DNA from: Escherichia phage T2
Sequence record: NC_054931.1
DNA length: 64,000 nt
Strand: one strand, 5' to 3'
The notes beneath the pieces are model-generated. The model ran no database searches and was not told where the DNA came from. It worked only from the letters and a program-made list of their open reading frames with translations. The position numbers and the translations under genes are program-made. Every line of letters begins with the position of its first letter. Position 1 is the stretch's first letter. This document shows, piece after piece, positions 9,274-56,757 of the stretch.

Positions 9274-9328
9274 ATTAAAAAAGGCCCAACCAAAAAGGAA
9301 GGGCCAAAACTATAGACTAAAGGTCACA

Positions 9329-9496
9329 CTATAGCAAAAGTTGTGTTTCATTTAATTGTTCTTCCGAACTTTCTGAAACTGGTAGTTCTTTAATGTAATT
9401 ATAGCAAGGCCCAGGATGTACAGGACCTTTGTCTGTTTCAACAACCAATGCAGAATCGATTGGAGTTTTACAGACAACACAAATCTTATCTGACAT
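9329..9496 (-). CDS. small Cys-containing hypothetical protein (uvsY.-2 position)
   Basis: 55-codon ORF MSDKICVVCK... with GAGGAG RBS; below the ORF-track size cutoff. Confidence 0.5.
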   Translation of the reverse strand: MSDKICVVCKTPIDSALVVETDKGPVHPGPCYNYIKELPVSESSEEQLNETQLLL

Positions 9497-9522
9497 GATT
9501 GTCTCCTCTGAATTATATCTAT

Positions 9523-9747
9523 TTATACAACTCTCATATGCATATCAATGCCCATATCTTTAGAATAAAAATATTCATCAAGATATCCGGCAAATTTTCC
9601 TTTAATATAAAGGACATCTTCACCACACGGGTGATCGGCCAGGATACGAATATCCTGACGCTTAAGATTATGCTTTTTCATTAAGAATTGAATCTCAGTT
9701 TCAAATTCTTCTTCATAATTAAAAGCATCATCAATGCTATATCTCAT
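9523..9747 (-). CDS. hypothetical protein (uvsY.-1 position)
   Basis: 74-aa ORF immediately downstream of uvsY. Confidence 0.6.
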   Translation of the reverse strand: MRYSIDDAFNYEEEFETEIQFLMKKHNLKRQDIRILADHPCGEDVLYIKGKFAGYLDEYFYSKDMGIDMHMRVV

Positions 9748-10160
9748 TATTTTCCAGCCTCAAATGCCCGCATGTCTTGAATATGCTTAATAGCAAATCC
9801 GCGTGATTTGATAGCATCAAGAGCTCCGCTACAGAAATCTAATAAAATCCCCCAATACTGTAACGAGGTATCAACCTTTAAAACATCCTTATCCGCTGAT
9901 AGAACTGTCTTCATTTCTGATTTCTCGTAACGATCCATACTAAATTCATCACCATCTCCTCGTCCCGAGTAGTAGTCTAATTTAGCTTTAAGAGCAACTT
10001 TTTTCTGTGCGTCAATTCTAAGCATTTCCTTTTTAATACTTGAATGCTTATTAAGCCATTTACTGTATAACATCACATTATTAGCTGCTTCATACTGTAA
10101 TTTAGTTGAATCTATAAACACATCTTTCTTCAATTCTTCTTGAAGATCTTCTAATCTCAT
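9747..10160 (-). CDS. uvsY: UvsY recombination mediator
   Basis: 137-aa ORF; length, sequence and synteny match T4 UvsY. Confidence 0.9.
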   Translation of the reverse strand: MRLEDLQEELKKDVFIDSTKLQYEAANNVMLYSKWLNKHSSIKKEMLRIDAQKKVALKAKLDYYSGRGDGDEFSMDRYEKSEMKTVLSADKDVLKVDTSLQYWGILLDFCSGALDAIKSRGFAIKHIQDMRAFEAGK

Positions 10161-10200
10161 ATTGTTCTCTATTCAATTGTTATTGGATGGACTTAGATTC

Positions 10201-10227
10201 ATTATACCACGTTTTAACGTGAAGCAT
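10201..10227 (-). promoter_or_regulatory. MotA-dependent middle promoter for uvsY
   Basis: On - strand: MotA box aaTGCTTCA, 13-nt spacer, TATAAT, about 40 nt upstream of uvsY ATG. Confidence 0.6.
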
Positions 10228-10625
10228 TATACCCTATTACTCGAAGCCAGTTGCAGTTTTATCTGCTCAATATCATCAGGGTTATCGATGACCGAAAAGC
10301 GTATTTCTACTATCAGAGTATAATCATCATAAACTGGTATCACATTAACTGATAATTTATCAATACGTGGCTCATAGTTTCTTACTGCGCTTTCGATATT
10401 GCGCTCAACCGTGTCAGCAGTAAGAGGAGTCATATTTTCAAAAAGCTGATCTGATAAATCACATCCAAATTCAGGGTCAAACGGTCTTGAACCTTTTCTT
10501 GTTGTAATAATTCCCAAAAGACTGTTTTTAATTGACCTTAATCCAAGTGATCTGGAAACATCTTTGTTCCAATCCATTTTCATTTCCGGGTCAATGTCAG
10601 AATAAAGCTTATTAATATTTGCCAT
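10227..10625 (-). CDS. 25: baseplate wedge protein gp25
   Basis: 132-aa ORF; T4 gp25 size and synteny. Confidence 0.9.
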   Translation of the reverse strand: MANINKLYSDIDPEMKMDWNKDVSRSLGLRSIKNSLLGIITTRKGSRPFDPEFGCDLSDQLFENMTPLTADTVERNIESAVRNYEPRIDKLSVNVIPVYDDYTLIVEIRFSVIDNPDDIEQIKLQLASSNRV

Positions 10626-44442: not shown

Positions 44443-44450
44443 TATAAATA
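44443..44450 (+). promoter_or_regulatory. late promoter TATAAATA upstream of gene 34
   Basis: Exact TATAAATA 35 nt upstream of the gene 34 ATG. Confidence 0.55.
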
Positions 44451-44484: not shown

Positions 44485-47400
44485 ATGGCCGAGATTAAAA
44501 GAAAGTTCAGAGCAGAAGATGGTCTGGACGCAGGTGGTGATAAAATAATCAACGTAGCTTTAGCTGATCGTGCCGTAGGAACTGACGGTGTTAACGTTGA
44601 TTACTTAATTCAAGAAAATACAGTTCAACAATATGATCCAACTCGTGGATATTTAAAAGATTTTGTAATCATTTATGATAACCGCTTTTGGGCTGCTATA
44701 AATGATATTCCAAAACCAGCAGGAGCTTTTAATAGCGGACGCTGGAGAGCATTACGTACCGATGCAAACTGGATTACGGTTTCATCCGGTTCATATCAAT
44801 TAAAATCCGGTGAAGCAATTTCGGTTAATACTGCAGCTGGAAATGACATCACGTTTACTTTACCATCTTCTCCAATTGATGGTGATACTATCGTTCTCCA
44901 AGATATTGGAGGAAAACCCGGAGTTAACCAAGTTTTAATTGTAGCTCCAGTGCAAAGTATTGTAAACTTTAGAGGTGAACAAGTACGTTCAGTACTAATG
45001 ACTCATCCAAAGTCACAGCTAGTTTTAATTTTTAGTAATCGTCTGTGGCAAATGTATGTTGCTGATTATAGTAGAGAAGCTGTAATTGTAACACCAGCGA
45101 ATACTTATCAAGCACAATCAAACGATTTTATCGTGCATAGATTTACTTCTGCCGCACCGATAAATATTAAACTTCCGAGATTTGCTAATCACGGAGATAT
45201 TATTAATTTCGTTGATTTAGATAAACTAAATCCACTTTATCATACAATTGTTACTACATACGATGAAACTACTTCAATACAAGAAGATGGAACTCATTCT
45301 ATTGAAGACCGTACATCAATCGACGGTTTCTTGATGTTTGATGATAATGAGAAATTGTGGAGATTGTTTGACGGGGACAGTAAAGCACGTTTACGTATCA
45401 TAACGACTAATTCAAACATTCTTCCAAATGAAGAAGTTATGGTATTTGGTGCGAATAACGGAACAACTCAAACAATTGAGCTTCAGCTTCCAACTAATAT
45501 TTCTGTTGGTGATACTGTTAAAATTTCCATGAATTACATGAGAAAAGGACAAACAGTTAAAATCAAAGCTGCTGATGAAGATAAAATTGCTTCTTCAGTT
45601 CAATTACTGCAATTCCCAAAACGCTCAGAATATCCGCCTGAAGCTGAATGGGTAACTGTCCAAGAATTAGTTTTTAACGGTGAAACTAATTATGTTCCAG
45701 TTTTGGAGCTTGCTTATATTGAAGATTCTGATGGAAAATACTGGGTTGTACAGCAAAACGTTCCAACCGTAGAAAGAGTAGATTCTTTAAATGATTCTAC
45801 TAGAGCAAGATTAGGCGTAATTGCTTTAGCTACACAAGCTCAAGCTAACGTCGATTTAGAAAATTCTCCACAAAAAGAATTAGCAATTACTCCAGAAACG
45901 TTAGCTAATCGCACTGCTACTGAAACTCGCAGAGGTATTGCAAGAATAGCAACTACTGCTCAAGTGAATCAGAACACCACATTCTCTTTTGCTGACGATA
46001 TTATCATCACTCCTAAAAAGCTGAATGAAAGAACTGCTACTGAAACTCGCAGAGGTGTTGCTGAAATTGCTACGCAGCAAGAAACTAATACAGGTACTGA
46101 TGATACTACAATCATCACTCCTAAAAAGCTTCAAGCCCGTCAAGGTTCTGAATCATTATCTGGTATTGTAACTTTTGTATCTACTGCAGGTGCTACTCCA
46201 GCTTCTAGCCGTGAATTAAATGGTACGAATGTTTATAATAAAAACACTAATAATTTAGTTGTTTCACCTAAAGCTTTGGATCAGTATAAAGCTACTCCAA
46301 CGCAGCAAGGTGCAGTAATTTTAGCAGTTGAAAGTGAAGTAATTGCTGGAAAAAGTCAGGAAGGATGGGCGAATGCTGTTGTAACGCCAGAAACGTTACA
46401 TAAAAAGACATCAACTGATGGAAGAATTGGTTTAATTGAAATTGCTACGCAAAGTGAAGTTAATACAGGAACTGATTATACTCGTGCAGTCACTCCTAAA
46501 ACTTTAAATGACCGTAGAGCAACTGAAAGTTTAAGTGGTATAGCTGAAATTGCTACACAAGTTGAATTCGACGCAGGCGTCGACGATACTCGTATCTCTA
46601 CACCATTAAAAATTAAAACCAGATTTAATAGTACTGATCGTACTTCTGTTGTTGCTCTATCTGGATTAATTGAATCAGGAACTCTCTGGGACCATTATAC
46701 CCTTAATATTCTTGAAGCAAATGAGACACAACGTGGTACACTTCGTGTAGCTACACAAGTTGAAGCTGCTGCAGGAAAATTAGATAATGTTTTAATAACT
46801 CCTAAAAAGCTTTTAGGTACTAAATCTACCGAATCGCAAGAGGGTGTTATTAAAGTTGCAACTCAGTCTGAAGCTGTGGCTGGAACGTCAGCAAATACTG
46901 CTATATCTCCAAAAAATTTAAAATGGATTGTGCAGAGTGAACCTTCTTGGAGAGCAACTACTACGGTAAGAGGGTTTGTTAAAACTTCGTCTGGTTCAAT
47001 TACATTCGTTGGTAATGATACAGTCGGTTCTACCCAAGATTTAGAACTTTATGAGAAAAATAATTATGCAGTATCACCATATGAATTAAACCGTGTATTA
47101 GCAAATTATTTGCCGTTAAAAGCAAAAGCTGTAGATAGTAATTTATTGGATGGTCTAGATTCATCCCAGTTCATTCGTAGGGATATTGCACAGACGGTTA
47201 ATGGTTCACTAACCTTAACCCAACAAACGAATCTGAGTGCCCCTCTTGTATCATCTAGTACTGCTACGTTTGGTGGTTCAGTTTCGGCAAATAGTACATT
47301 AACTATTTCTAATACTGGTACGACTTCTTCTCGATTTACATTTGAGAAAGGTCCTGCTTCTGGTAGTAATGCTGATTCTGCATTGTATGTTCGTGTATGG

Positions 47401-48357
47401 GGTAATAAGTACAGCGGCGGTTCTGATGTAACTCGTGCAACGATTATAGAATTCTCTGATGCTACCGGCTCTCATTTCTATTCTCAAAGAGATACGTCAA
47501 ATAATGTGTTGTTCAACATTTCAGGTACGATGCAATCAGTCAACGCTAGCGTTCGTGGTGTTCTGAACGTTACAGGTGTCTCAACGTTTAATAGTTCAGT
47601 TACAGCCAATGGTGAATTCATCAGTAAATCACCAAATGCTTTTAGAGCAATAAATGGAAATTACGGATTCTTTATTCGTAATGCTGGTAATGACACCTAT
47701 TTTATGCTCACTGCAGCAGGTGATCAGAGCGGTGGATTTAATGGATTACGTCCATTATCAATTAATAATCAATCCGGTCAGGTTACGATTGGTGAAAGCT
47801 TAATCATTGCCAAAGGTGCTACTATAAATTCAGGTGGTTTGACTGTTAACTCGAGAATTCGTTCTCAGGGTACTAAAACATCTGATTTATATACCCGTGC
47901 GCCAACATCTGATACTGTAGGATTCTGGTCAATCGATATTAATGATTCAGCCACTTATAACCAGTTCCCGGGTTATTTTAAAATGGTTGAAAAAACTAAT
48001 GAAGTGACTGGGCTTCCATACTTAGAACGTGGCGAAGAAGTTAAATCTCCTGGTACACTGACTCAGTTTGGTAATACACTTGATTCGCTTTACCAAGATT
48101 GGATTACTTATCCAACGACGCCAGAAGCGCGTACCACTCGCTGGACACGTACATGGCAGAAAACCAAAAACTCTTGGTCAAGTTTTGTTCAGGTATTTGA
48201 TGGTGGAAACCCTCCTCAACCTTCTGATATTGGTGCTTTACCTTCTGATAATGCAACAATCGGAAACTTGACAATAAGGGATTTCTTAAGGATTGGTAAT
48301 GTCCGCATTATTCCAGACCCTGTGAATAAATCTGTTAAATTCGAGTGGATTGAATAA
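44485..48357 (+). CDS. 34: long tail fibre proximal subunit gp34
   Basis: 1290-aa ORF with internal ERTATETRRG...IAT sequence repeats; size matches T4 gp34. Confidence 0.95.
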   Translation: MAEIKRKFRAEDGLDAGGDKIINVALADRAVGTDGVNVDYLIQENTVQQYDPTRGYLKDFVIIYDNRFWAAINDIPKPAGAFNSGRWRALRTDANWITVSSGSYQLKSGEAISVNTAAGNDITFTLPSSPIDGDTIVLQDIGGKPGVNQVLIVAPVQSIVNFRGEQVRSVLMTHPKSQLVLIFSNRLWQMYVADYSREAVIVTPANTYQAQSNDFIVHRFTSAAPINIKLPRFANHGDIINFVDLDKLNPLYHTIVTTYDETTSIQEDGTHSIEDRTSIDGFLMFDDNEKLWRLFDGDSKARLRIITTNSNILPNEEVMVFGANNGTTQTIELQLPTNISVGDTVKISMNYMRKGQTVKIKAADEDKIASSVQLLQFPKRSEYPPEAEWVTVQELVFNGETNYVPVLELAYIEDSDGKYWVVQQNVPTVERVDSLNDSTRARLGVIALATQAQANVDLENSPQKELAITPETLANRTATETRRGIARIATTAQVNQNTTFSFADDIIITPKKLNERTATETRRGVAEIATQQETNTGTDDTTIITPKKLQARQGSESLSGIVTFVSTAGATPASSRELNGTNVYNKNTNNLVVSPKALDQYKATPTQQGAVILAVESEVIAGKSQEGWANAVVTPETLHKKTSTDGRIGLIEIATQSEVNTGTDYTRAVTPKTLNDRRATESLSGIAEIATQVEFDAGVDDTRISTPLKIKTRFNSTDRTSVVALSGLIESGTLWDHYTLNILEANETQRGTLRVATQVEAAAGKLDNVLITPKKLLGTKSTESQEGVIKVATQSEAVAGTSANTAISPKNLKWIVQSEPSWRATTTVRGFVKTSSGSITFVGNDTVGSTQDLELYEKNNYAVSPYELNRVLANYLPLKAKAVDSNLLDGLDSSQFIRRDIAQTVNGSLTLTQQTNLSAPLVSSSTATFGGSVSANSTLTISNTGTTSSRFTFEKGPASGSNADSALYVRVWGNKYSGGSDVTRATIIEFSDATGSHFYSQRDTSNNVLFNISGTMQSVNASVRGVLNVTGVSTFNSSVTANGEFISKSPNAFRAINGNYGFFIRNAGNDTYFMLTAAGDQSGGFNGLRPLSINNQSGQVTIGESLIIAKGATINSGGLTVNSRIRSQGTKTSDLYTRAPTSDTVGFWSIDINDSATYNQFPGYFKMVEKTNEVTGLPYLERGEEVKSPGTLTQFGNTLDSLYQDWITYPTTPEARTTRWTRTWQKTKNSWSSFVQVFDGGNPPQPSDIGALPSDNATIGNLTIRDFLRIGNVRIIPDPVNKSVKFEWIE

Positions 48358-48365
48358 GAGGTATT

Positions 48366-49481
48366 ATGGAAAAATTTATGGCTAAGTTTGGACAAGGATA
48401 CGTCCAAACGCCATTTTTATCGGAAAGCAATTCAGTACGATTTAAATTAAGCATAGCGGGATCTTGCCCGCTTTCTACAGCAGGACCATACGTTAAATTT
48501 CAAGATAATCCTGTAGGAAGTCAAACATTTAGCGCAGGTCTTCATTTAAGAGTTTTTGACCCTTCCACCGGAGCATTAGTTGATAGTAAGTCATATGCTT
48601 TTTCGACTTCAAATGATACTACATCAGCTGCTTTTGTTAGCTTCATGAATTCTTTGACAAATAATAGAATTGTTGCTATATTAACTAACGGAAAGGTTAA
48701 TTTTCCTCCTGAAGTAGTATCTTGGTTAAGAACTGCAGGAACGTCTGCTTTTCCATCTGATTCTATATTGTCAAGATTCGACGTATCATATGCTGCTTTT
48801 TATACTTCTTCTAAAAGAGCTATTGCATTAGAGCATGTTAAACTGAGTAATAGAAAAAGCACAGATGATTATCAAACTATTTTAGATGTCGTATTTGACA
48901 GTTTAGAAGATGTTGGAGCTACCGGGTTTCCAAGAAGAACGTATGAAAGCGTTGAGCAATTTATGTCAGCGGTTGGTGGAACTAATAACGAAATCGCGCG
49001 TTTACCAACTTCGGCTGCTATAAGTAAATTATCTGATTATAATTTAATTCCTGGTGATGTTCTTTATCTTAAAACACAGCTATACGCCGATGCCGATTTA
49101 CTTGCTCTTGGAACTACGAATATATCCATTCGATTTTATAATGCATCAAATGGATATATTTCCTCGACACAAGCTGAATTTACCGGGCAAGCTGGTGTTT
49201 GGGAATTAAAAGAAGATTATGTAGTTGTTCCAGAAAATGCAGTAGGATTTACGATATATGCACAAAGAACTGCACAAGCTGGTCAAGGTGGAATGAGGAA
49301 CTTAAGCTTTTCTGAGGTATCAAGAAATGGTAGTATTTCGAAACCCGCTGAATTTGGTGTCAATGGTATTCGAGTTAATTATGTCTGTGAATCTGCTTCA
49401 CCTCCGGATATAATGGTACTTCCTACACAAGCATCGTCTAAAACTGGTAAAGTGTTTGGGCAAGAATTTAGAGAAGTATAA
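48366..49481 (+). CDS. 35: long tail fibre hinge (knee) protein gp35
   Basis: 371-aa ORF; synteny. Confidence 0.9.
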   Translation: MEKFMAKFGQGYVQTPFLSESNSVRFKLSIAGSCPLSTAGPYVKFQDNPVGSQTFSAGLHLRVFDPSTGALVDSKSYAFSTSNDTTSAAFVSFMNSLTNNRIVAILTNGKVNFPPEVVSWLRTAGTSAFPSDSILSRFDVSYAAFYTSSKRAIALEHVKLSNRKSTDDYQTILDVVFDSLEDVGATGFPRRTYESVEQFMSAVGGTNNEIARLPTSAAISKLSDYNLIPGDVLYLKTQLYADADLLALGTTNISIRFYNASNGYISSTQAEFTGQAGVWELKEDYVVVPENAVGFTIYAQRTAQAGQGGMRNLSFSEVSRNGSISKPAEFGVNGIRVNYVCESASPPDIMVLPTQASSKTGKVFGQEFREV

Positions 49482-49486
49482 ATTGA

Positions 49487-49513
49487 GGGAGCCTTCGGGT
49501 TCCCTTTTTCTTT
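49487..49513 (+). terminator. terminator after gene 35
   Basis: GGGAGCC-TTCG-GGTTCCC hairpin followed by TTTTTCTTT. Confidence 0.6.
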
Positions 49514-49520
49514 ATAAATA
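49513..49520 (+). promoter_or_regulatory. late promoter TATAAATA upstream of gene 36
   Basis: Exact TATAAATA 24 nt upstream of the gene 36 ATG. Confidence 0.55.
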
Positions 49521-49543: not shown

Positions 49544-50203
49544 ATGGCTGATTTAAAAGTAGGTTCAACAACTGGAGGCTCTGTCATTTGGCATCAAGGA
49601 AATTTTCCATTGAATCCAGCCGGTGACGATGTACTCTATAAATCATTTAAAATATATTCAGAATACAATAAACCACAAGCTGCTGATAACGATTTCGTTT
49701 CTAAAGCTAATGGCGGTACTTATCTAAACCGAGTTATCTTTAACCGGGGTATTCAAGTCCCGGGAGCCGGCAATGGTCTGACCGGGATGTTTGTTGGGCC
49801 AGGTGATGGAGCAACTTATGATAATGTTAACCTTGATATAATATCTTGGTATGGTATCGGATTTAAATCATCTCAAGGAACAGGACCCAGGACAATTGTT
49901 TTTAACGTTCGTGACGGTGAAATTTCGGCCCGTGGTAATATAAATTCACAGCGTCAGGTGCGAGCCGAAGCCGCAGCGCCCATTGCCGCGAATGACCTTA
50001 CTAGAAAGGACTATGTTGATGGAGCAATAAATACTGTTACAGCAAATGCGAACTCTAGAGTGTTGCGTTCTGGCGATACTATGACAGGTAATTTAACCGC
50101 GCCAAACTTTTTCTCGCAGAATCCCGCATCTCAACCTTCACATGTTCCACGATTTGACCAAATCGTAATTAAGGATTCTGTTCAAGATTTCGGCTATTAT
50201 TAA
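49544..50203 (+). CDS. 36: long tail fibre distal connector gp36
   Basis: 219-aa ORF; synteny. Confidence 0.9.
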
Positions 50204-50211
50204 GAGGACTT

Positions 50212-53200
50212 ATGGCTACTTTAAAACAAATACAATTTAAAAGAAGCAAAACCGCAGGTGCACGTCCTGCTGCTTCAGTATTAGCCGAAGGTGAATTGGC
50301 TATAAACTTAAAAGATAGAACAATTTTTACTAAAGATGATTCAGGAAATATCATTGATTTAAGCATTTCTGCTGGTGGTAATATCAGTGGAAATATCACT
50401 CAAACTGGTGATTATACACAGACTGGAAAATTTAATTTAATTGGTCCGCAAATTGTAGCAAGCGGTGGATATATTGAGTTTAATTATCGTACTACTGGAA
50501 GTGGGGCTTGGTCCGGTCAACATACTGCGAAAGCTCCAATTTTTGTAGATTTAAGCTCAGCTACTTCCACATCTGAATATAATCCTATAATTAAACAGCG
50601 CTTTAAAGATGGAACTTTTTCATTAGGTACTTTAGTTTCTGAAGGTTCGTTGAAGATTCATTATATCAATGAATCTGGCGATTCGAAATATTGGACGTTT
50701 CGACGTGACGGCGGATTTACTGTTGACGGTGGAGGTTTAGGAGTATCAGGAGGTAGTATAACTACATCTGGAAATATTGCAGCTCTCGGAAATATTACTT
50801 CGCCTCAGATTAATACTAAAAATATTATTTTAGATACAAAAGCATTTGGACAATACGATTCGCAATCATTAGTTCAATATGTTTATCCTGGAACAGGTGA
50901 AGAAAATGGTATAAACTATCTTCGTAAAGTTCGAGCTAAATCAGGCGGAACCATTTACCATGAAATCGCTTCAGCTCAAACCGGTAAAAATGATGAAATT
51001 TCTTGGTGGACCGGAAATACACTTACTACTAAATTAATGGGTCTTCGTAATGATGGCGCAATGGTATTACGTCGTTCACTTGCTATTGGCACAATTACTG
51101 CTGACGAAAATACCAATAACTACGGCTCTCCTACTCCAATGGGAGAAAGATATATTGCTTTGGGCGATGCTGCCACTGGTTTAAAATACATTAAGCAGGG
51201 CGTTTATGATTTAGTAGGTAATTGGAATTCTGTTGCTTCTATTACTCCTGATAGTTTCCGTAGTACTCGTAAAGCATTATTTGGACGTTCAGAAGACCAA
51301 GGCGGAACCTGGACAATGCCTGGAACGAACGCTGCTCTCTTGTCTGTTCAAACTCAGGCAGATGTGAATAACGCAGGTGATGGACAAACTCATATCGGTT
51401 ATAACTCCGGCGGGAAAATGTCCCACTATTTCCGCGGTAAAGGCCAAACTAATATTAATACTCAAAAAGGCATGGAAGTTAACCCTGGTATTTTAAAATT
51501 GGTAACTGACTCTAATAACGTACAGTTTTATGCTAATGGAACAGTATCTTCAATACAAAGAATTAAATTTGATAACGGATTAGTTCTTACTGGTGCTAGA
51601 CCCGACGGTATTCAACTTGACGCTCCTACAGCAGCAGATGGCACTAAAACTATACTGTGGGCTGGTGGTACTCGCGCAGGTCAGAATAAAAGTTATGTAT
51701 CTATTAAAGCGTGGGGTAATTCATTTAACGCATCTGGCGATCGTGCTCGTGAAACGGTTTTTGAGGTAGGTGATGGGCAAGGTTTCCATTTTTATTCTCA
51801 ACGTGTAGCTCCTGCGCCTGGTTCGACTGTCGGGCCTATTCAACTCCGAGTTAATGGTGGTTTATTAACTGCAGGTAGTATTGTTGCTTCTGGTTCTATT
51901 ACAACTGAATCTTCTTTAAATGTTAATAATGGATTGTCTGTAAATGGACAAGCTAAATTTGGTGGAACAGCAAACGCACTGAGAATTTGGAACGCTGAAT
52001 ACGGTGTTATTTTCCGTCGTTCTGAAAGTAACTTTTATATTATTCCAACCAATCAAAATGAAGGCGAAAGTGGAGACATTCACAGCTCTTTAAGACCCGT
52101 GAGAATAGGATTAAACGATGGTGCGGTTGGATTAGGAAGAGATTCTTTTATAGTAGATCAAAATAATGCTTTAACTACGATAAACAGTAACTCTCGCATT
52201 AATGCCAACTTTAGAATGCAATTGGGGCAGTCGACATATATTGATGCAGAATGTACTGATACTGTTCGACCAGCTGGTGCAGGTTCATTTGTCTCGCAAA
52301 ATAATGAAAACGTTCGTGCTCCATTCTATATGAATATTAATCGTACAGATACAAGTACTTACGTTCCTATTTTAAAACAACGTTATGTTCAAGGAAATAG
52401 CTGTTATTCTTTAGGTACATTAATTAGTACGGGTGATTTTAGAATTCATTATCATGAAGGTGGTGATAATGGTTCAACAGGTCCACAAAAGGCGGATTTA
52501 GCATGGCAATTTAGACGTGATGGCTCGTTCCGTTCACCTAATAAAATTGAAATTAATGCCGTTACAATTGGTACTGATGGCAACATCACAGGTGGTACTG
52601 GTAATTTTGCCAACTTAAATACCACGTTAAATCGTAAAACGACTGTGGGAGGTTGGGCTGGTAGTTCCGTTGTTGGATGGTACAAATTTGCTACAGTAAC
52701 AATTCCTCAGAGTACTGGCACAGTAACTTTTAAAATTTCCGGTGGAGCTGGTTTTAATTTTAAAAGCTATAACCAAGCTTCTATTGCTGAGATAGTTCTT
52801 CGCACAGGTAATAATCCTAAAGGCATAAACGCTGTACTATGGAACAGGTCAGACCTGAGTTTTAATCAGATAGCTACTATGAATACATCTGATGATACTT
52901 ATGATGTATACGTATTCTGTGAAGGTTATACAAACGCATTGATAGTTGAATATTCATGTAGTGAAAACTCTTCAGTAACTGTAGTCGGTCTTAACGGAGG
53001 CATTCAACCAGTTGTTGATGCATTGCCTGAGGGACATGTTGTAGGTAAAACAGTTCGTCTGTTAAATAATATTGGCGGAACTTTCGCAGCTGGCGAATCT
53101 GACATTGTTACTCGTGGTGAATACGTTGCTGATAATCAAAAAGGCATGCGTATTAAATCTAACGGTAATAATATCGGTTCTAATGCTGCTATACTTCGAA

Positions 53201-54237
53201 ATGACGGCGGAAGTTTTTATATTTTAGCTACAGATAAAAATACAGCAGAAAAATCCGATGCAGCTAATGGTGATTGGAATGGCTTAAGACCTTTCGCCAT
53301 TAATATGGCTGATGGTCGCGTTGGTATGAACCATGGTCTAAATATTACCGGCGGTGGCTTGAATGTTACTGGTGGCTTGAATGTTACTAGTGGTAATACT
53401 AGTTTAGGTAATATTTCGTCTCGTGTGGTGGCTCGTTGGCGAGGAGCGTCCGGTTGGGCTGATAACTCGGATACAATGAAATCTAAAATCACCTTTATGG
53501 CAGACCATGGGGATTTATCTAATTCAGACAGTTATTATCCTATTGTAGGCGCATACAGCAACTATGGTTCAGCGGGTTATCGTCAAACCTTTGAGTTCGG
53601 ATGGGTCGGTTCCGGCACTACAGCGGGTTGGCGCGATGGTATTATTCGTATTCGCGGAGATAATGCTAATGGCCAGCAAGCAAGATGGCGCTTTACAATG
53701 GACGGTACTTTAGATTGCCCTGGTAAAGTACTGCTACCACAAACAGGTGCCTTTGGTGTCAATACATCAAATGGTCTCGGTGGAAATAGTATAACATTTG
53801 GTGATAGCGATACTGGTATTAAGCAAAATGGCGATGGATTATTAGACATATATGCGAACAGCGTACAAGTATTCCGTTTCCAAAACGGTGATTTGTACTC
53901 ATACAAAAATATAAATGCTCCAAACGTTTATATTCGTTCTGATATTCGTTTAAAATCCAACTTCAAACCTATCGAAAATGCGCTTGATAAAGTTGAAAAA
54001 CTTAACGGTGTCATTTACGATAAAGCTGAATACATCGGTGGAGAGGCAATTGAAACTGAAGCGGGTATTGTGGCTCAAACGTTACAAGACGTTTTACCAG
54101 AAGCTGTCCGTGAAACAGAAGACAGCAAGGGTAATAAAATACTCACTGTTTCTTCTCAAGCCCAGATTGCTCTTCTAGTTGAAGCTGTGAAAACACTTTC
54201 TGCTCGTGTAAAAGAACTTGAATCTAAACTTATGTAA
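50212..54237 (+). CDS. 37: long tail fibre distal subunit gp37, T2-type with C-terminal intramolecular chaperone domain
   Basis: 1341-aa ORF (T4 gp37 is about 1026 aa); last 99 codons (53938-54234, [18 protein letters not shown]...) resemble self-cleaving chaperone domains of phage fibres. Confidence 0.9.
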
Positions 54238-54239
54238 AA

Positions 54240-54255
54240 GAGGGCTTCGGCCCTC
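54240..54255 (+). other. stem-loop GAGGGC-TTCG-GCCCTC between genes 37 and 38
   Basis: GC hairpin without strong T tract; possible RNA processing or stability element. Confidence 0.4.
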
Positions 54256-54267
54256 TAAGGATTTTTA

Positions 54268-55056
54268 ATGGCAATTGTAGGTGTTCCTGGCTGGATTGGA
54301 GAATCTGCCGTGAATGAAACTGGACAACGCTGGATGGATGCTGCGATGAGAGCTGTTCATGTTTCAGTTCCCGGCTGGATGAGCTCAATGGCAGGACAAT
54401 CAAAAGAAATTTATCTATCTATAGGGGCTAACCATAATTATGATAGAAACTCCCTTATTAACTGGATGAGGGCTCAAGGTGGTGCGCCCGTGGTTATTAC
54501 AATCACTGGTGACTTAGTATCAAACAGCACAGGTAACGCTTGTTTGGAATTTCCTAGTGACCTTCCTAACGCGTATATTCAACTTATCATTAATAGCGGT
54601 GTGACTGTTTATGGCCGAGGAGGTAATGGTTCTACTAATAGTTCGGCAGGTGGAAACGGTGGTACAGCTATCCATAATGCAGCCGGAACTAAACTCCGTA
54701 TTCGTAATAACGGCGCTATTGCCGGTGGTGGCGGTGGTGGCGGTGCCGCATCATTGAAAAATAGCTATCCAACTAATGGTAGCTGCGGTGGTGGCGGCGG
54801 TAGACCATTTGGCGTAGGTGGCAAAATAGGCTCTGACTCTATATTGTCCGGTTCGAATGCGTCTTTAACAGATGCCGGTACAGGTGGTACTACATTCCAA
54901 TACGGCGCAGGTAACGGCGGTAACGTTGGAGCTGGCGGTGGACGAGGATGGGGCAAAAATGTTTATACTTCAGAGGGTGGCGCAGCTGGTGCTGCTGTCA
55001 CAGGCAATGCTCCTAACTGGCAAAACGTAGGAACTATTTACGGCTCAAGAGTCTAA
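54268..55056 (+). CDS. 38: T2-type receptor-binding adhesin gp38 (glycine-rich motifs)
   Basis: 262-aa ORF with several poly-Gly blocks (GGGGGGGAAS, CGGGGGRPFGVGG, GAGGGRGWG) separated by variable segments; unlike the 183-aa T4 gp38 chaperone. Confidence 0.88.
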   Translation: MAIVGVPGWIGESAVNETGQRWMDAAMRAVHVSVPGWMSSMAGQSKEIYLSIGANHNYDRNSLINWMRAQGGAPVVITITGDLVSNSTGNACLEFPSDLPNAYIQLIINSGVTVYGRGGNGSTNSSAGGNGGTAIHNAAGTKLRIRNNGAIAGGGGGGGAASLKNSYPTNGSCGGGGGRPFGVGGKIGSDSILSGSNASLTDAGTGGTTFQYGAGNGGNVGAGGGRGWGKNVYTSEGGAAGAAVTGNAPNWQNVGTIYGSRV

Positions 55057-55087: not shown

Positions 55088-55744
55088 ATGGCAGCACCTA
55101 GAATATCATTTTCGCCCTCTGATATTCTGTTTGGTGTTCTAGATCGCTTGTTCAAAGATAACGCTACCGGGAAGGTTCTTGCTTCCCGGGTAGCTGTCGT
55201 AATTCTTTTGTTTATAATGGCGATTGTTTGGTATAGGGGAGATAGTTTCTTTGAGTACTATAAGCAATCAAAGTATGAAACATACAGTGAAATTATTGAA
55301 AAGGAAAGAACTGCACGCTTTGAATCTGTCATCCTGGAACAACTCCAGATAGTTCATATATCATCTGAGGCAGACTTTAGTGCGGTGTATTCTTTCCGCC
55401 CTAAAAACTTAAACTATTTTGTTGATATTATAGCATACGAAGGAAAATTACCTTCAACGATAAGTGAAAAATCACTTGGAGGATATCCTGTTGATAAAAC
55501 TATGGATGAATATGCAGTTCATTTAAATGGACGTCATTATTATTCCAGCTCAAAATTTGCTTTTTTGCCAACTAAAAAGCCTACTCCCGAAATAAACTAC
55601 ATGTACAGTTGTCCATATTTTAATTTGGATAATATCTATGCTGGAACAATAACCATGTACTGGTATAGAAATGATCATATAAGTAATGACCGCCTTGAAT
55701 CAATATGTTCTCAGGCGGCCAGAATATTAGGAAGGGCTAAATAA
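55088..55744 (+). CDS. t: holin T
   Basis: 218-aa ORF MAAPRISFSPSDILFGVLDRLFKDN... with single TM segment; recognised as T4 holin. Confidence 0.93.
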   Translation: MAAPRISFSPSDILFGVLDRLFKDNATGKVLASRVAVVILLFIMAIVWYRGDSFFEYYKQSKYETYSEIIEKERTARFESVILEQLQIVHISSEADFSAVYSFRPKNLNYFVDIIAYEGKLPSTISEKSLGGYPVDKTMDEYAVHLNGRHYYSSSKFAFLPTKKPTPEINYMYSCPYFNLDNIYAGTITMYWYRNDHISNDRLESICSQAARILGRAK

Positions 55745-56017
55745 TTATTTGTTTGTATACATCTCTAGATATCGATATACACCCTCAAAACCCTCGTTGA
55801 ATTCGTCGATGAGGGTTTTCTTATCTTCTTGAGTTAATTCAGAAACAATTTTACGGAATGAATTCTGATTTAACTTTCTACCTTCATGCGTTACTCCAAT
55901 CTCATTCAGAAATGCAATAAAATTAGCACGATTCTCAACAATATCTTCTCTGGAAAATTTAATCAAAATAGACGCAACAGTAATAATTTCACGAACTGTA
56001 TCAATATTTTTATTCAT
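55745..56017 (-). CDS. asiA: anti-sigma-70 factor AsiA
   Basis: 90-aa ORF MNKNIDTVREIITVASILIKF...; recognised as T4 AsiA. Confidence 0.92.
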   Translation of the reverse strand: MNKNIDTVREIITVASILIKFSREDIVENRANFIAFLNEIGVTHEGRKLNQNSFRKIVSELTQEDKKTLIDEFNEGFEGVYRYLEMYTNK

Positions 56018-56033
56018 TAACTATACCACTCAA

Positions 56034-56180
56034 TTAGTTGACTTTGTTAATATCATCAGACGCTTGATTTGTAAACTGGTCTGTGTTATTTTCTTCAAAA
56101 ATTTTTTCTACGAATTCCTTGAACGACTCACGTTCCTGAGCTACATTGTGCTCGATTACATTTTCAAGATTATGACTCAT
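56034..56180 (-). CDS. small acidic hypothetical protein
   Basis: 48-codon ORF, ATGA overlap with arn stop; below ORF-track cutoff. Confidence 0.4.
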   Translation of the reverse strand: MSHNLENVIEHNVAQERESFKEFVEKIFEENNTDQFTNQASDDINKVN

Positions 56181-56455
56181 TCGAAATAATCTTCAATTTC
56201 GTAATCATGGACATAAAACATTATAGTTTTTAATACATCATCAATACTTTTTCCTGGAGCTGGAATTACGTAAAAATACCCTGCTTTTGAGAGGTCTTTA
56301 TAAGTTCCAATCAAGAAATCATTATTCTCAAGATGTAACTCTTCAACTAATTCATTAACAATTGAGTGGTATAAATTTGGTAGAAACTTATATAGCTTTT
56401 CTAGAATATCAATTTTGATTGTGTATTGAACCACAGATTGAGAATCAATAATCAT
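56177..56455 (-). CDS. arn: Arn anti-restriction protein (McrBC inhibitor)
   Basis: 92-aa acidic ORF downstream of motA cluster; size and position match T4 arn. Confidence 0.8.
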   Translation of the reverse strand: MIIDSQSVVQYTIKIDILEKLYKFLPNLYHSIVNELVEELHLENNDFLIGTYKDLSKAGYFYVIPAPGKSIDDVLKTIMFYVHDYEIEDYFE

Positions 56456-56538
56456 AGACCTTCCCCTTATGTTTCTGTTTGCGATTAGATTCTTTAAACG
56501 CTTTCTTCTTATCCTTATGAACAGAAGCTTTATTAAAA

Positions 56539-56757
56539 TTATGTTTTGCGACTAAATTGTTCATAGTGCTGAATTACCTCTCTCAAACATTTGCATGTGA
56601 ATGAAAACTTTTTAGCTACACCACATTCAAATATATGTTCTCTTAAATCACGTGTATCGGTATATCCCATCTCAACGATAAAATGCCGTATTAGATTTTT
56701 ATCTTTATCATTGAGAGAATTAAAATAATCGGATTTTGAATTAATTTCCCTGGCCAA
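56539..56757 (-). CDS. hypothetical protein (arn.1 position)
   Basis: 72-aa ORF. Confidence 0.5.
   Translation of the reverse strand: MAREINSKSDYFNSLNDKDKNLIRHFIVEMGYTDTRDLREHIFECGVAKKFSFTCKCLREVIQHYEQFSRKT

Follow-up and report, generated by a model that had tools for sequence, protein, structure and literature searches.

At positions 50212-55056 of the 64,000-nucleotide stretch of Escherichia phage T2 DNA analysed here (NC_054931.1; hereafter the window), two long-tail-fibre genes lie side by side, raising the question of which of their products meets the host receptor and how the end of the fibre comes to carry it. Altogether, our results support, to the point of near certainty, a model whereby the locus encodes the T2 long-tail-fibre receptor-recognition module, in which gp37 matures and is capped by gp38 in five steps, unlike in T4. 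The locus comprises genes 37 and 38 of coliphage T2, the tail-fibre shaft and its host-recognising glycine-rich cap:

50212-54237, + strand: gene 37, long tail fibre distal subunit precursor, 1341 aa, 143.2 kDa (ORF list; X04442 CDS; phrog_1699).
54268-55056, + strand: gene 38, receptor-recognising adhesin, 262 aa (Pfam; phrog_2056; S16 gp38 6F45_D; AP018813).

All 4845 nt are 100.0% identical to the complete phage T2 genomes PV958097, MH751506, AP018813, and PV648363, and the first 4059 nt are 100.0% identical to GenBank X04442, entitled "Bacteriophage T2 gene 37 for receptor recognizing protein"; window positions 1-25000 are likewise 100% T2. Among the T2 g37-g38 records, X04442, AP018813, MH751506, and PV958097 agree with the locus in ORF boundaries and in the intergenic stem-loop as annotated, with zero differences. 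The ORF list and genome records give the T-even-like gene order g34-g35-g36-g37-g38-t-asiA, with g38 between g37 (stop at 54237) and the holin gene t (55088-55744). The gp37 translation, ending in ...KELESKLM, is 100% identical to the X04442 CDS "receptor recognizing protein (AA 1-1341)" and matches phrog_1699 (E=0). The T2-type receptor recognition module that had been proposed from the letters alone is thus borne out by identity to T2 itself. Phage SV76 is also 100.0% identical to 50212-55056, with a bit score of 8937 vs 8948 for T2, and we rejected SV76 as the identity of the window because of this lower score; SV76 and T2 differ by two gp38 substitutions, yet use different receptors (PMC3157838, PMC12529663).

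The module has been known since the 1980s and nothing in it is new here: published work already covers how T2 gp37 is processed, that gp38 serves as the adhesin, and that T2 uses OmpF and FadL as receptors, and most of the checks that the sequence-only reading proposed (alignment of gp38, analysis of virion gp37, and adsorption assays) have already been carried out by others and published. T2 gp37-gp38 founded its class, adhesin-capped tail fibres having first been described in it, and the module is now used routinely in host-range engineering and in the prediction of receptors from genome sequence.

In our model, gp37 would be synthesised as a 1341-aa precursor, and its last 99 residues, an S74 intramolecular chaperone, would act as the C-terminal nucleus from which the distal fibre trimerises and folds. 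The Ser1243-Lys1248 dyad would cleave the Arg1242/Ser1243 bond and the chaperone would depart, after which a single gp38 would cap the exposed trimeric ...NVYIR end via an N-terminal three-helix domain with Trp9, Trp22, and Trp37. The distal part of gp38 would finally present a polyglycine-II "sandwich" of conserved glycine-rich motifs, with the hypervariable loops between the motifs contacting outer-membrane receptors, OmpF and FadL for T2. The first three steps concern the following parts of gp37:

50212-53937, + strand: predicted mature gp37, aa 1-1242, 132.4 kDa, ending ...NAPNVYIR (alignment to S16 gp37, PDB 6F45_A).
53938-54234, + strand: intramolecular chaperone / Peptidase_S74 domain, aa 1243-1341, 99 aa, 10.8 kDa (Pfam PF13884).
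53938-53955, + strand: SDIRLK motif with Ser1243 (53938-53940) and Lys1248 (53953-53955) (conservation; S16 alignment).

The last ~99 residues of gp37 had been noted to resemble self-cleaving chaperone domains, and this likeness is confirmed by a match to Pfam PF13884 Peptidase_S74 (E=3.3e-15, 56.5 bits, cut-off 22) that covers the full profile (1-58) at aa 1243-1300 of 1341 and by the alignment of SDIRLK with S16 SDRRIK; the proposed limits, 53938-54234, are exact, with the Ser1243 codon starting at 53938 and the last codon ending at 54234. The domain also matches the MYRF ICA domain 7dc3 (E=1e-3) and is conserved across 14 T-even gp37 tails, all 14 of which keep Ser1243 and Lys1248 even with unalignable tip sequence just upstream. 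In family S74, a Ser-Lys dyad carries out cleavage, and in T2 gp37 Ser1243 is the putative nucleophile and P1' residue while Lys1248 is the putative general base. T2 NVYIR^SDIRLKS aligns with S16 gp37 DLNVS^SDRRIKK, and we infer the T2 cleavage position by this homology only. The gel-based estimate made by Drexler in 1986 for the removed part is said to be nearer 120 residues than 99. In S16 gp37, the last 113 residues are reported to be autocleaved just before the Ser of SDRRIK, exposing the gp38 docking face, and such autoproteolytic release after trimerisation is reported for S16 (PMC7917993) and also for K1F, T5, and phi29. By analogy, we predict that the 99-aa C-terminal domain of T2 gp37 is released by autoproteolysis after trimerisation and that the trimeric C-terminal face of mature gp37 is the docking site of gp38.

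The docking partner carries the corresponding attachment domain:

54268-54402, + strand: gp38 N-terminal attachment domain, aa 1-45, with Trp9, Trp22, and Trp37 (Gp38_N at aa 1-42).

gp38 matches Pfam PF05268 GP38 (E=1.6e-79, 267 bits, cut-off 25; aa 47-262), PF21721 Gp38_N (E=6.6e-17, 61.7 bits; aa 1-42), phrog_2056 "tail fiber protein; host specificity" (E=5e-99), and the crystal structure of S16 gp38, 6F45_D (E=1.5e-44; aa 8-260), and is annotated as "long tail fiber adhesin" in AP018813. With scores of this order, neither the gp37 chaperone domain nor the gp38 family assignment is due to chance. The Gp38_N match, together with three Trp residues that are each at least 90% conserved in an alignment of 14 adhesins (alignment A1), substantiates the claim of a conserved N-terminal attachment part. 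A search of viral contigs with gp38 yielded only 3 related loci; further adhesins came from 10 diverse loci found by tblastn of a phage collection. In S16, the three conserved Trp residues fit into pockets of the gp37 trimer and the crystal contains one gp38 per gp37 trimer (PMC6851490), from which we infer a 3:1 stoichiometry for T2; gp38 is described as apparently trimeric by Trojet 2011 (PMC3157838). The PDB copy searched yielded neither T2 gp38, alone or with OmpF or FadL, nor the T2 gp37 tip, the nearest entries being those of S16 and of a different gp38 fused to GFP.

Beyond the attachment domain, the recognition surface would be built from the distal part of gp38, with the motif boundaries given here being operational:

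54613-55005, + strand: gp38 specificity region, aa 116-246 (alignment A1, 14 adhesins), composed of GRM1 116-121, HVS1 122-151, GRM2 152-159, HVS2 160-173, GRM3 174-185, HVS3 186-214, GRM4 215-224, HVS4 225-237, and GRM5 238-246.
55006-55053, + strand: conserved C-terminal end of gp38, aa 247-262, NAPNWQNVGTIYGSRV, closing the beta-helix (entropy 0.65 bits).

The five GRMs and four HVSs follow the published scheme for gp38, and the conserved C-terminal motif was noted by Trojet 2011 (PMC3157838); the S16 gp38 structure contains 10 PGII helices. Gly accounts for 22.5% of T2 gp38 overall, for 34% of aa 116-246, and for 10% of aa 1-115. In the alignment of 14 adhesins, entropy is 0.09-0.38 bits in GRM1-3 vs 1.6-2.1 bits in HVS2-4, GRM4-5 are moderately conserved only (0.76-0.86 bits), and HVS1 is only moderately variable, at 1.04 bits, so that strong variability lies in aa 160-173, 186-214, and 225-237. 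The sequence-only reading had described poly-Gly blocks with short variable segments between them. The variability holds for HVS2-4, whereas the first segment, 30 aa in length, is for the most part conserved, and true poly-Gly occurs just twice, as G7 (153-159) and as G5 (174-178), while the remaining blocks are glycine-rich motifs.

The same reading placed the host-range hotspots in these segments, in agreement with the concentration of variation in HVS2-4 and with the T2 escape substitution D190G, which was assigned to hypervariable region 3 (PMC12529663) and falls inside HVS3 as delimited here. T2 binds FadL and OmpF (PMC12529663, PMC3157838), with receptor assignments that conflict between papers ("only FadL" vs "OmpF and FadL"; PMC3157838). 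From homologues and the literature, the contacts with these receptors are probably made by the gp38 loops. Consistently, amber mutants of T6 g38 look normal in morphology yet fail to adsorb, and chimera mapping located the specificity determinant inside a 400-bp, HVS-containing part of g38 (PMC3157838).

Might gp37 or LPS nevertheless share in the choice of receptor? The distal third of gp37 is mosaic, and of 685 phage records with a match to g37-g38, no more than 10 span 80% or more of that sequence; T2 and T4 gp37 are 60% identical over ~aa 1-860 and divergent beyond (BLASTP), and the tips just before the chaperone domain cannot be aligned between subgroups (n=14 T-even gp37 proteins). A PP01 evolution study names gp37 as well as gp38 among the attachment proteins that evolve (PMC6027323), and several gp38 phages also need LPS (PMC3157838). 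A material contribution of the distal, T2-specific part of gp37 (~aa 860-1242) or of LPS contacts beside the gp38 loops is, in our view, unlikely, because the chimeras point to the HVS-containing part of g38, because two gp38 residues separate T2 from SV76 with its different receptors, and because variation in the gp37 tip may merely follow the gp38 N-domain to be docked.

Two further readings would alter the model itself. The C-terminal 99 residues of gp37 might stay on, as a fibre-tip structure or as part of the gp38 docking site, given that not every protein matching Peptidase_S74 has been shown to self-cleave; the retention of the cleavage-motif Ser and Lys in 14 of 14 homologues, the autocleavage by which the S16 homologue exposes its gp38 binding face (PMC7917993), and the report of Trojet 2011 that gp37 of T2 and T6 is cleaved and afterwards capped (PMC3157838) make this very improbable. 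Drexler et al. 1986, a paper cited in PMC3157838, likewise names proteolytic processing of T2 gp37 in its title. Slimmer still, and in our opinion next to nil, is the chance that T2 gp38 is a T4-like assembly chaperone for gp37 that is absent from the virion and leaves receptor binding to gp37. T2 g38 does occupy the genomic slot of T4 g38, and the label "distal long tail fiber assembly catalyst" still stands on T2-type gp38 in several GenBank records, with "tail assembly protein" in others; the "assembly catalyst" label is annotation carried over from T4. However, the sequence-only reading had named alignment with the 183-aa T4 chaperone family as the result that would count against it, and BLASTP of T2 gp38 with T4 gp38 gives E=80 and 4/15 identities, for lengths of 262 vs 183 aa, on which we rejected a T4-type chaperone; the T4 RefSeq note calls T2-subfamily gp38 "unrelated" to T4 gp38, and the adhesin. 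The strong match to the Gp38 adhesin family, with a homologue crystallised at the fibre tip (6F45), the adsorption defect of morphologically normal T6 g38 amber phage (PMC3157838), the mapping of T2 escape from receptor blocking to gp38 D190G (PMC12529663), and the chaperone domain that gp37 has of its own all argue for gp38 as the adhesin. Riede et al. 1987, as cited in PMC6851490, report gp38 in purified T2 virions or at fibre tips. A first reading made from sequence was accurate at this locus, and calls on similar modules in unknown phages therefore deserve some trust.

The only element of the locus that the accessible literature does not fully explain lies between the two genes; a second signal lies upstream:

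54239-54256, + strand: intergenic hairpin AGAGGGC-UUCG-GCCCUCU, 7 bp, dG -13.4 kcal/mol (X04442 annotation; relatives).
49513-49520, + strand: T4-type late-promoter-like motif TATAAATA, 24 nt upstream of g36 (motif match).

The hairpin, annotated as "pot. transcription terminator" in X04442, is followed by the Shine-Dalgarno sequence AAGGA and the g38 ATG. It is kept among T2-type relatives with compensatory changes in the stem, which we read straight from the sequences, as the tetraloops are not lined up in the MAFFT alignment of the spacers (A2); T4 has the hairpin as well, between coding sequences unrelated to those of T2. We speculate, doubtful as it is that the C(UUCG)G hairpin is more than a generic stable one, that it lowers gp38 or joins exchanged cassettes. 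Possibly, it is a partial terminator or an mRNA-processing or stability element that reduces gp38 relative to gp37 output, and lower gp38 output would match one gp38 per gp37 trimer; another possibility is a conserved recombination joint for the exchange of adhesin or chaperone cassettes. Late-promoter and terminator signals also occur around g34-g36. A second copy of TATAAATA is present at 44443, before g34, and the copy at 49513 is the likely start of the g36-g37-g38 late transcript. A sigma-70 promoter scan gave no excess over shuffled sequence (18 vs 20.7), as these are late genes for which the TATAAATA motif is the relevant signal. The whole window gave no Rfam match at gathering thresholds and nothing from ARAGORN.

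Placing the T2 module among known fibre tips shows which of its parts are shared. In T4, the same gene slots are filled and the proximal two thirds of gp37 are common to T2 (60% over ~860 aa), and the g37-g38 spacer has the same UUCG hairpin; however, the T4 gp37 tip carries Collar and Phage_fiber repeat (His-box) domains and lacks an S74 domain, while T2 gp37 has the reverse, with Collar (PF07484) and Phage_fiber (PF03335) not found in it by Pfam. The T4 gp37 needle tip binds the receptor and gp38 and gp57A are chaperones, T4 gp38 being a 183-aa protein that belongs to no Pfam family and is absent from the virion (T4 RefSeq, PMC6851490). With gp37 similarity ending at ~aa 860, the contrast with T4 drawn at first sight of the sequence is correct. 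S16 is closer: its gp38 (PDB 6F45; Dunne et al. 2018) is homologous over T2 gp38 aa 8-260, with a Trp-bearing attachment domain, a beta-helix, and glycine-rich motifs in common and unlike hypervariable loops, and the C-terminal part of its gp37 is homologous to that of T2, with the S-D-x-R-x-K cleavage motif in both, although the chaperone domain has 113 aa in S16 vs 99 aa in T2 and the residues before the cleavage site are DLNVS vs NVYIR. K1F endoNF, T5 pb1, phi29 gp12, and the eukaryotic MYRF ICA domain belong to the PF13884 family, as does T2 gp37, and in these chaperones, as in T2, the domain sits at the C-terminus of a trimeric fibre and opens with a Ser...Lys motif. While the mature fibre or spike binds the receptor in endosialidases and T5 pb1, cleavage in T2 would also make the docking surface for a separate adhesin.

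Genes 37 and 38 (window 50212-55056) are those of T2 itself, beyond merely T2-type, and the feature they encode is already known as the type example of an adhesin-capped tail fiber. In a megablast search against 50,697 phage records, all 4845 nt were 100.0% identical to the T2 genomes PV958097, MH751506, AP018813 and PV648363, a fifth T2 genome (PV648364) and phage SV76 scored marginally lower, and the window's first 25 kb was likewise 100% T2. GenBank X04442, 'Bacteriophage T2 gene 37 for receptor recognizing protein', is 100% identical over the first 4059 nt and annotates a 1341-aa CDS together with a stem-loop, a potential terminator, in the spacer ahead of gene 38. AP018813 labels gp37 'phage tail fiber protein' and gp38 'long tail fiber adhesin'. 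Elsewhere in that record (AP018813.1 11534-12459, approximately window 55745-56670), a 90-aa asiA homolog is called 'DNA polymerase' and the arn region 'inhibitor of host transcription'; by comparison with T4, these are annotation-transfer errors, as is the name 'assembly catalyst' given to T2-type gp38 in several records.

The order of the ORFs and the Pfam labels of gp36 and the T holin identify the T-even long-tail-fiber cluster g34-g35-g36-g37-g38-t, a co-oriented plus-strand run after which minus-strand genes follow.

Features of the long-tail-fiber cluster (window coordinates, strand)
44443-44450, +, TATAAATA, T4 late-promoter-like motif, 42 nt before g34
44485-48357, +, g34, ORF of 1290 aa
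48366-49481, +, g35, ORF of 371 aa
49485-49506, +, GC-rich UUCG hairpin then T-run, after g35
49513-49520, +, TATAAATA, T4 late-promoter-like motif, 31 nt before g36
49544-50203, +, g36, ORF of 219 aa, Pfam Phage_T4_gp36
50212-54237, +, g37, ORF of 1341 aa
54239-54256, +, 7-bp hairpin AGAGGGC-UUCG-GCCCUCU in the g37-g38 spacer, -13.4 kcal/mol
54268-55056, +, g38, ORF of 262 aa
55088-55744, +, t, ORF of 218 aa, Pfam T holin

The motif TATAAATA before g34 and g36, together with the hairpin and T-run after g35, suggests that these late genes are transcribed as two units, g34-g35 and g36-g37-g38(-t). Downstream of the spacer hairpin lie AAGGA and then the g38 ATG. In the g37-g38 spacers of other T-even phages (L004-L016), its stems read GGGC/GCCC, GGCC/GGCC, GGGGC/GCCCC and GGGGG/CCCCC, the sequence changing and the pairing being preserved by compensatory changes. 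The hairpin is a candidate attenuator, mRNA stabilizer or recombination joint. CTTCGG, the C(UUCG)G tetraloop core, occurs at 33 sites across the window (for example, 49493, 54245 and 58931) versus 14.8 expected, and 0/100 shuffles reach 33. This excess fits the abundance of C(UUCG)G hairpins that Tuerk et al. in 1988 reportedly described in T4 intercistronic regions.

The sequence-only reading had placed a self-cleaving chaperone domain in the last 99 residues of gp37, and its coordinates are exact: residue 1243 starts at 53938, the last codon ends at 54234, and the peptide it quoted is found there. The chaperone assignment is borne out by a complete Peptidase_S74 domain ('chaperone of endosialidase') at aa 1243-1300 (Pfam; 56.5 bits, cut-off 22, E=3.3e-15). 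Among solved structures, the last 149 residues of gp37 matched 6F45_A, which is gp37 in the tip complex of Salmonella phage S16, the T2 region aligning to S16 DLNVS-SDRRIKKDI, and more weakly (E=1e-3) the human MYRF intramolecular-chaperone autoprocessing domain. In S16, the last 113 residues of gp37 are autocleaved after trimerization, the cut falling between the serine pair in DLNVS^SDRRIKK and uncovering the docking surface for gp38 (PMC7917993; see also PMC7289586). In an alignment of gp37 tails (the final 260 residues; T2 plus 13 further T-even phages), Ser1243 and Lys1248 are present in 14/14, even though the fiber tips directly upstream are unalignable between subgroups. By homology, T2 gp37 is predicted to be cut between Arg1242 and Ser1243, which would leave a mature chain of 132.4 kDa and free a fragment of 10.8 kDa (computed masses). 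We keep the exact site as a prediction because Drexler, Riede and Henning in 1986 reportedly estimated that ~120 residues are removed from T2 gp37. The title of that paper reports proteolytic processing of T2 gp37 in fiber morphogenesis (cited in PMC3157838), and Trojet et al. (2011) state that the gp37 C-terminus of T2 and T6 is cleaved, after which gp38 caps gp37 (PMC3157838).

Further upstream, gp37 aa 479-744 and 961-1030 resemble the gp34 C-terminal region: gp34-type structures match (PDB 4uxe/5nxf/9x3r, E about 1e-17), Pfam places Gp34_trimer in two stretches, and gp37 BLASTP gives an internal echo linking T2 aa 993-1039 to T4 segment 595-637. Judged from these similarities, the proximal and the distal half-fiber appear to have fiber-shaft modules in common, with duplication of modules between the two. 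The hinge protein gp35 (48366-49481, +) carries at aa 58-127 a match to ILEI (PF15711, 'Interleukin-like EMT inducer'; E=6.2e-9, 36.7 bits, cut-off 27), a surprising label for a phage fiber protein.

gp38 belongs to the T2-type adhesins. It matches Pfam Gp38_N (aa 1-42, E=6.6e-17) and GP38 (aa 47-262, E=1.6e-79), phrog_2056 'tail fiber protein; host specificity' (E=5e-99), and, among solved structures, S16 gp38 (6F45_D, E=1.5e-44 over aa 8-260) and 9v85, a GFP fusion of another gp38; tblastn finds relatives in 762 phage records. One of these records, the 87-kb OK283618.1 'Listeria phage LPML1', matches the N-terminal half of T2 gp38 in two pieces (9284-10230, 44% identity). Listeria is unexpected as the host where a T-even adhesin is concerned, and the record may be mislabeled, chimeric or a genuine distant relative. 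Per-column entropies were computed from T2 gp38 aligned with 13 adhesins (43-92% identity).

Conservation along gp38 (aa, entropy)
116-121, GRGGNG, 0.12 bits
122-151, segment with conserved LRI.N.G.I strand, 1.04 bits
152-159, AGGGGGGG, 0.09 bits
160-173, variable segment, 2.07 bits
174-185, GGGGGRPFGVGG, 0.38 bits
186-214, variable segment, 1.58 bits
225-237, variable segment, 1.90 bits

Published work divides such adhesins into five glycine-rich motifs with four hypervariable segments (PMC3157838), and the T2 profile fits that division. Along with Gp38_N and the conserved Trp9, Trp22 and Trp37, this profile agrees with the earlier description of gp38 as a conserved attachment part followed by glycine motifs with variable segments between them, and the alignment now positions those segments. 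In S16, a single gp38 sits on each gp37 trimer and inserts three such tryptophans into its pockets (PMC6851490). D190G, an experimentally selected T2 gp38 escape substitution, was assigned to hypervariable region 3 (PMC12529663); position 190, Asp in the window's gp38, lies within 186-214. G+C is 0.498 in 54500-54999, the 3' half of g38, versus 0.36-0.43 in neighboring windows; the high value falls on the Gly-rich part of gp38 (34% Gly over aa 116-246), whose GGN codons would explain it, so that foreign origin need not follow.

In the best-supported account, the gp37 precursor would trimerize starting from its C-terminal chaperone domain, a Ser-Lys dyad would free that domain, the newly made C-terminal face would take one gp38 via its Trp-bearing attachment domain, and gp38 loops between polyglycine-II helices would contact OmpF or FadL, the reported T2 receptors (PMC3157838, PMC12529663). 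What the sequences show directly is the identity with T2, the family memberships, the conserved motifs and the pattern of variability; cleavage position, stoichiometry and receptor contacts we infer from S16 and from earlier work on T2. The observation of the sequence-only reading is confirmed and its interpretation supported.

The alternative that T2 gp38 is a T4-type chaperone is rejected, as the sequence-only reading had held: comparison with the 183-aa T4 gp38 gave no similarity (BLASTP E=80). T4 gp38 matched no family in the Pfam search, and the T4 RefSeq note calls the adhesin of the T2 subfamily an 'unrelated gp38'. T6 g38 amber mutants are described as having normal morphology and lost adsorption (PMC3157838), which counts against a chaperone-only role of T2-type gp38. 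The T4 cluster g34-g35-g36-g37-g38-t is arranged as in the window, and its g37-g38 spacer (T4 locus L003, 9621-9652) carries the same hairpin, although the coding sequences on either side are unrelated to those of T2. T4 gp37 is 60% identical to T2 gp37 up to about residue 860. Beyond that point the two diverge: T4 has Collar and Phage_fiber repeat domains there, and T2 has a Gp34_trimer-like module, its second, together with the S74 domain.
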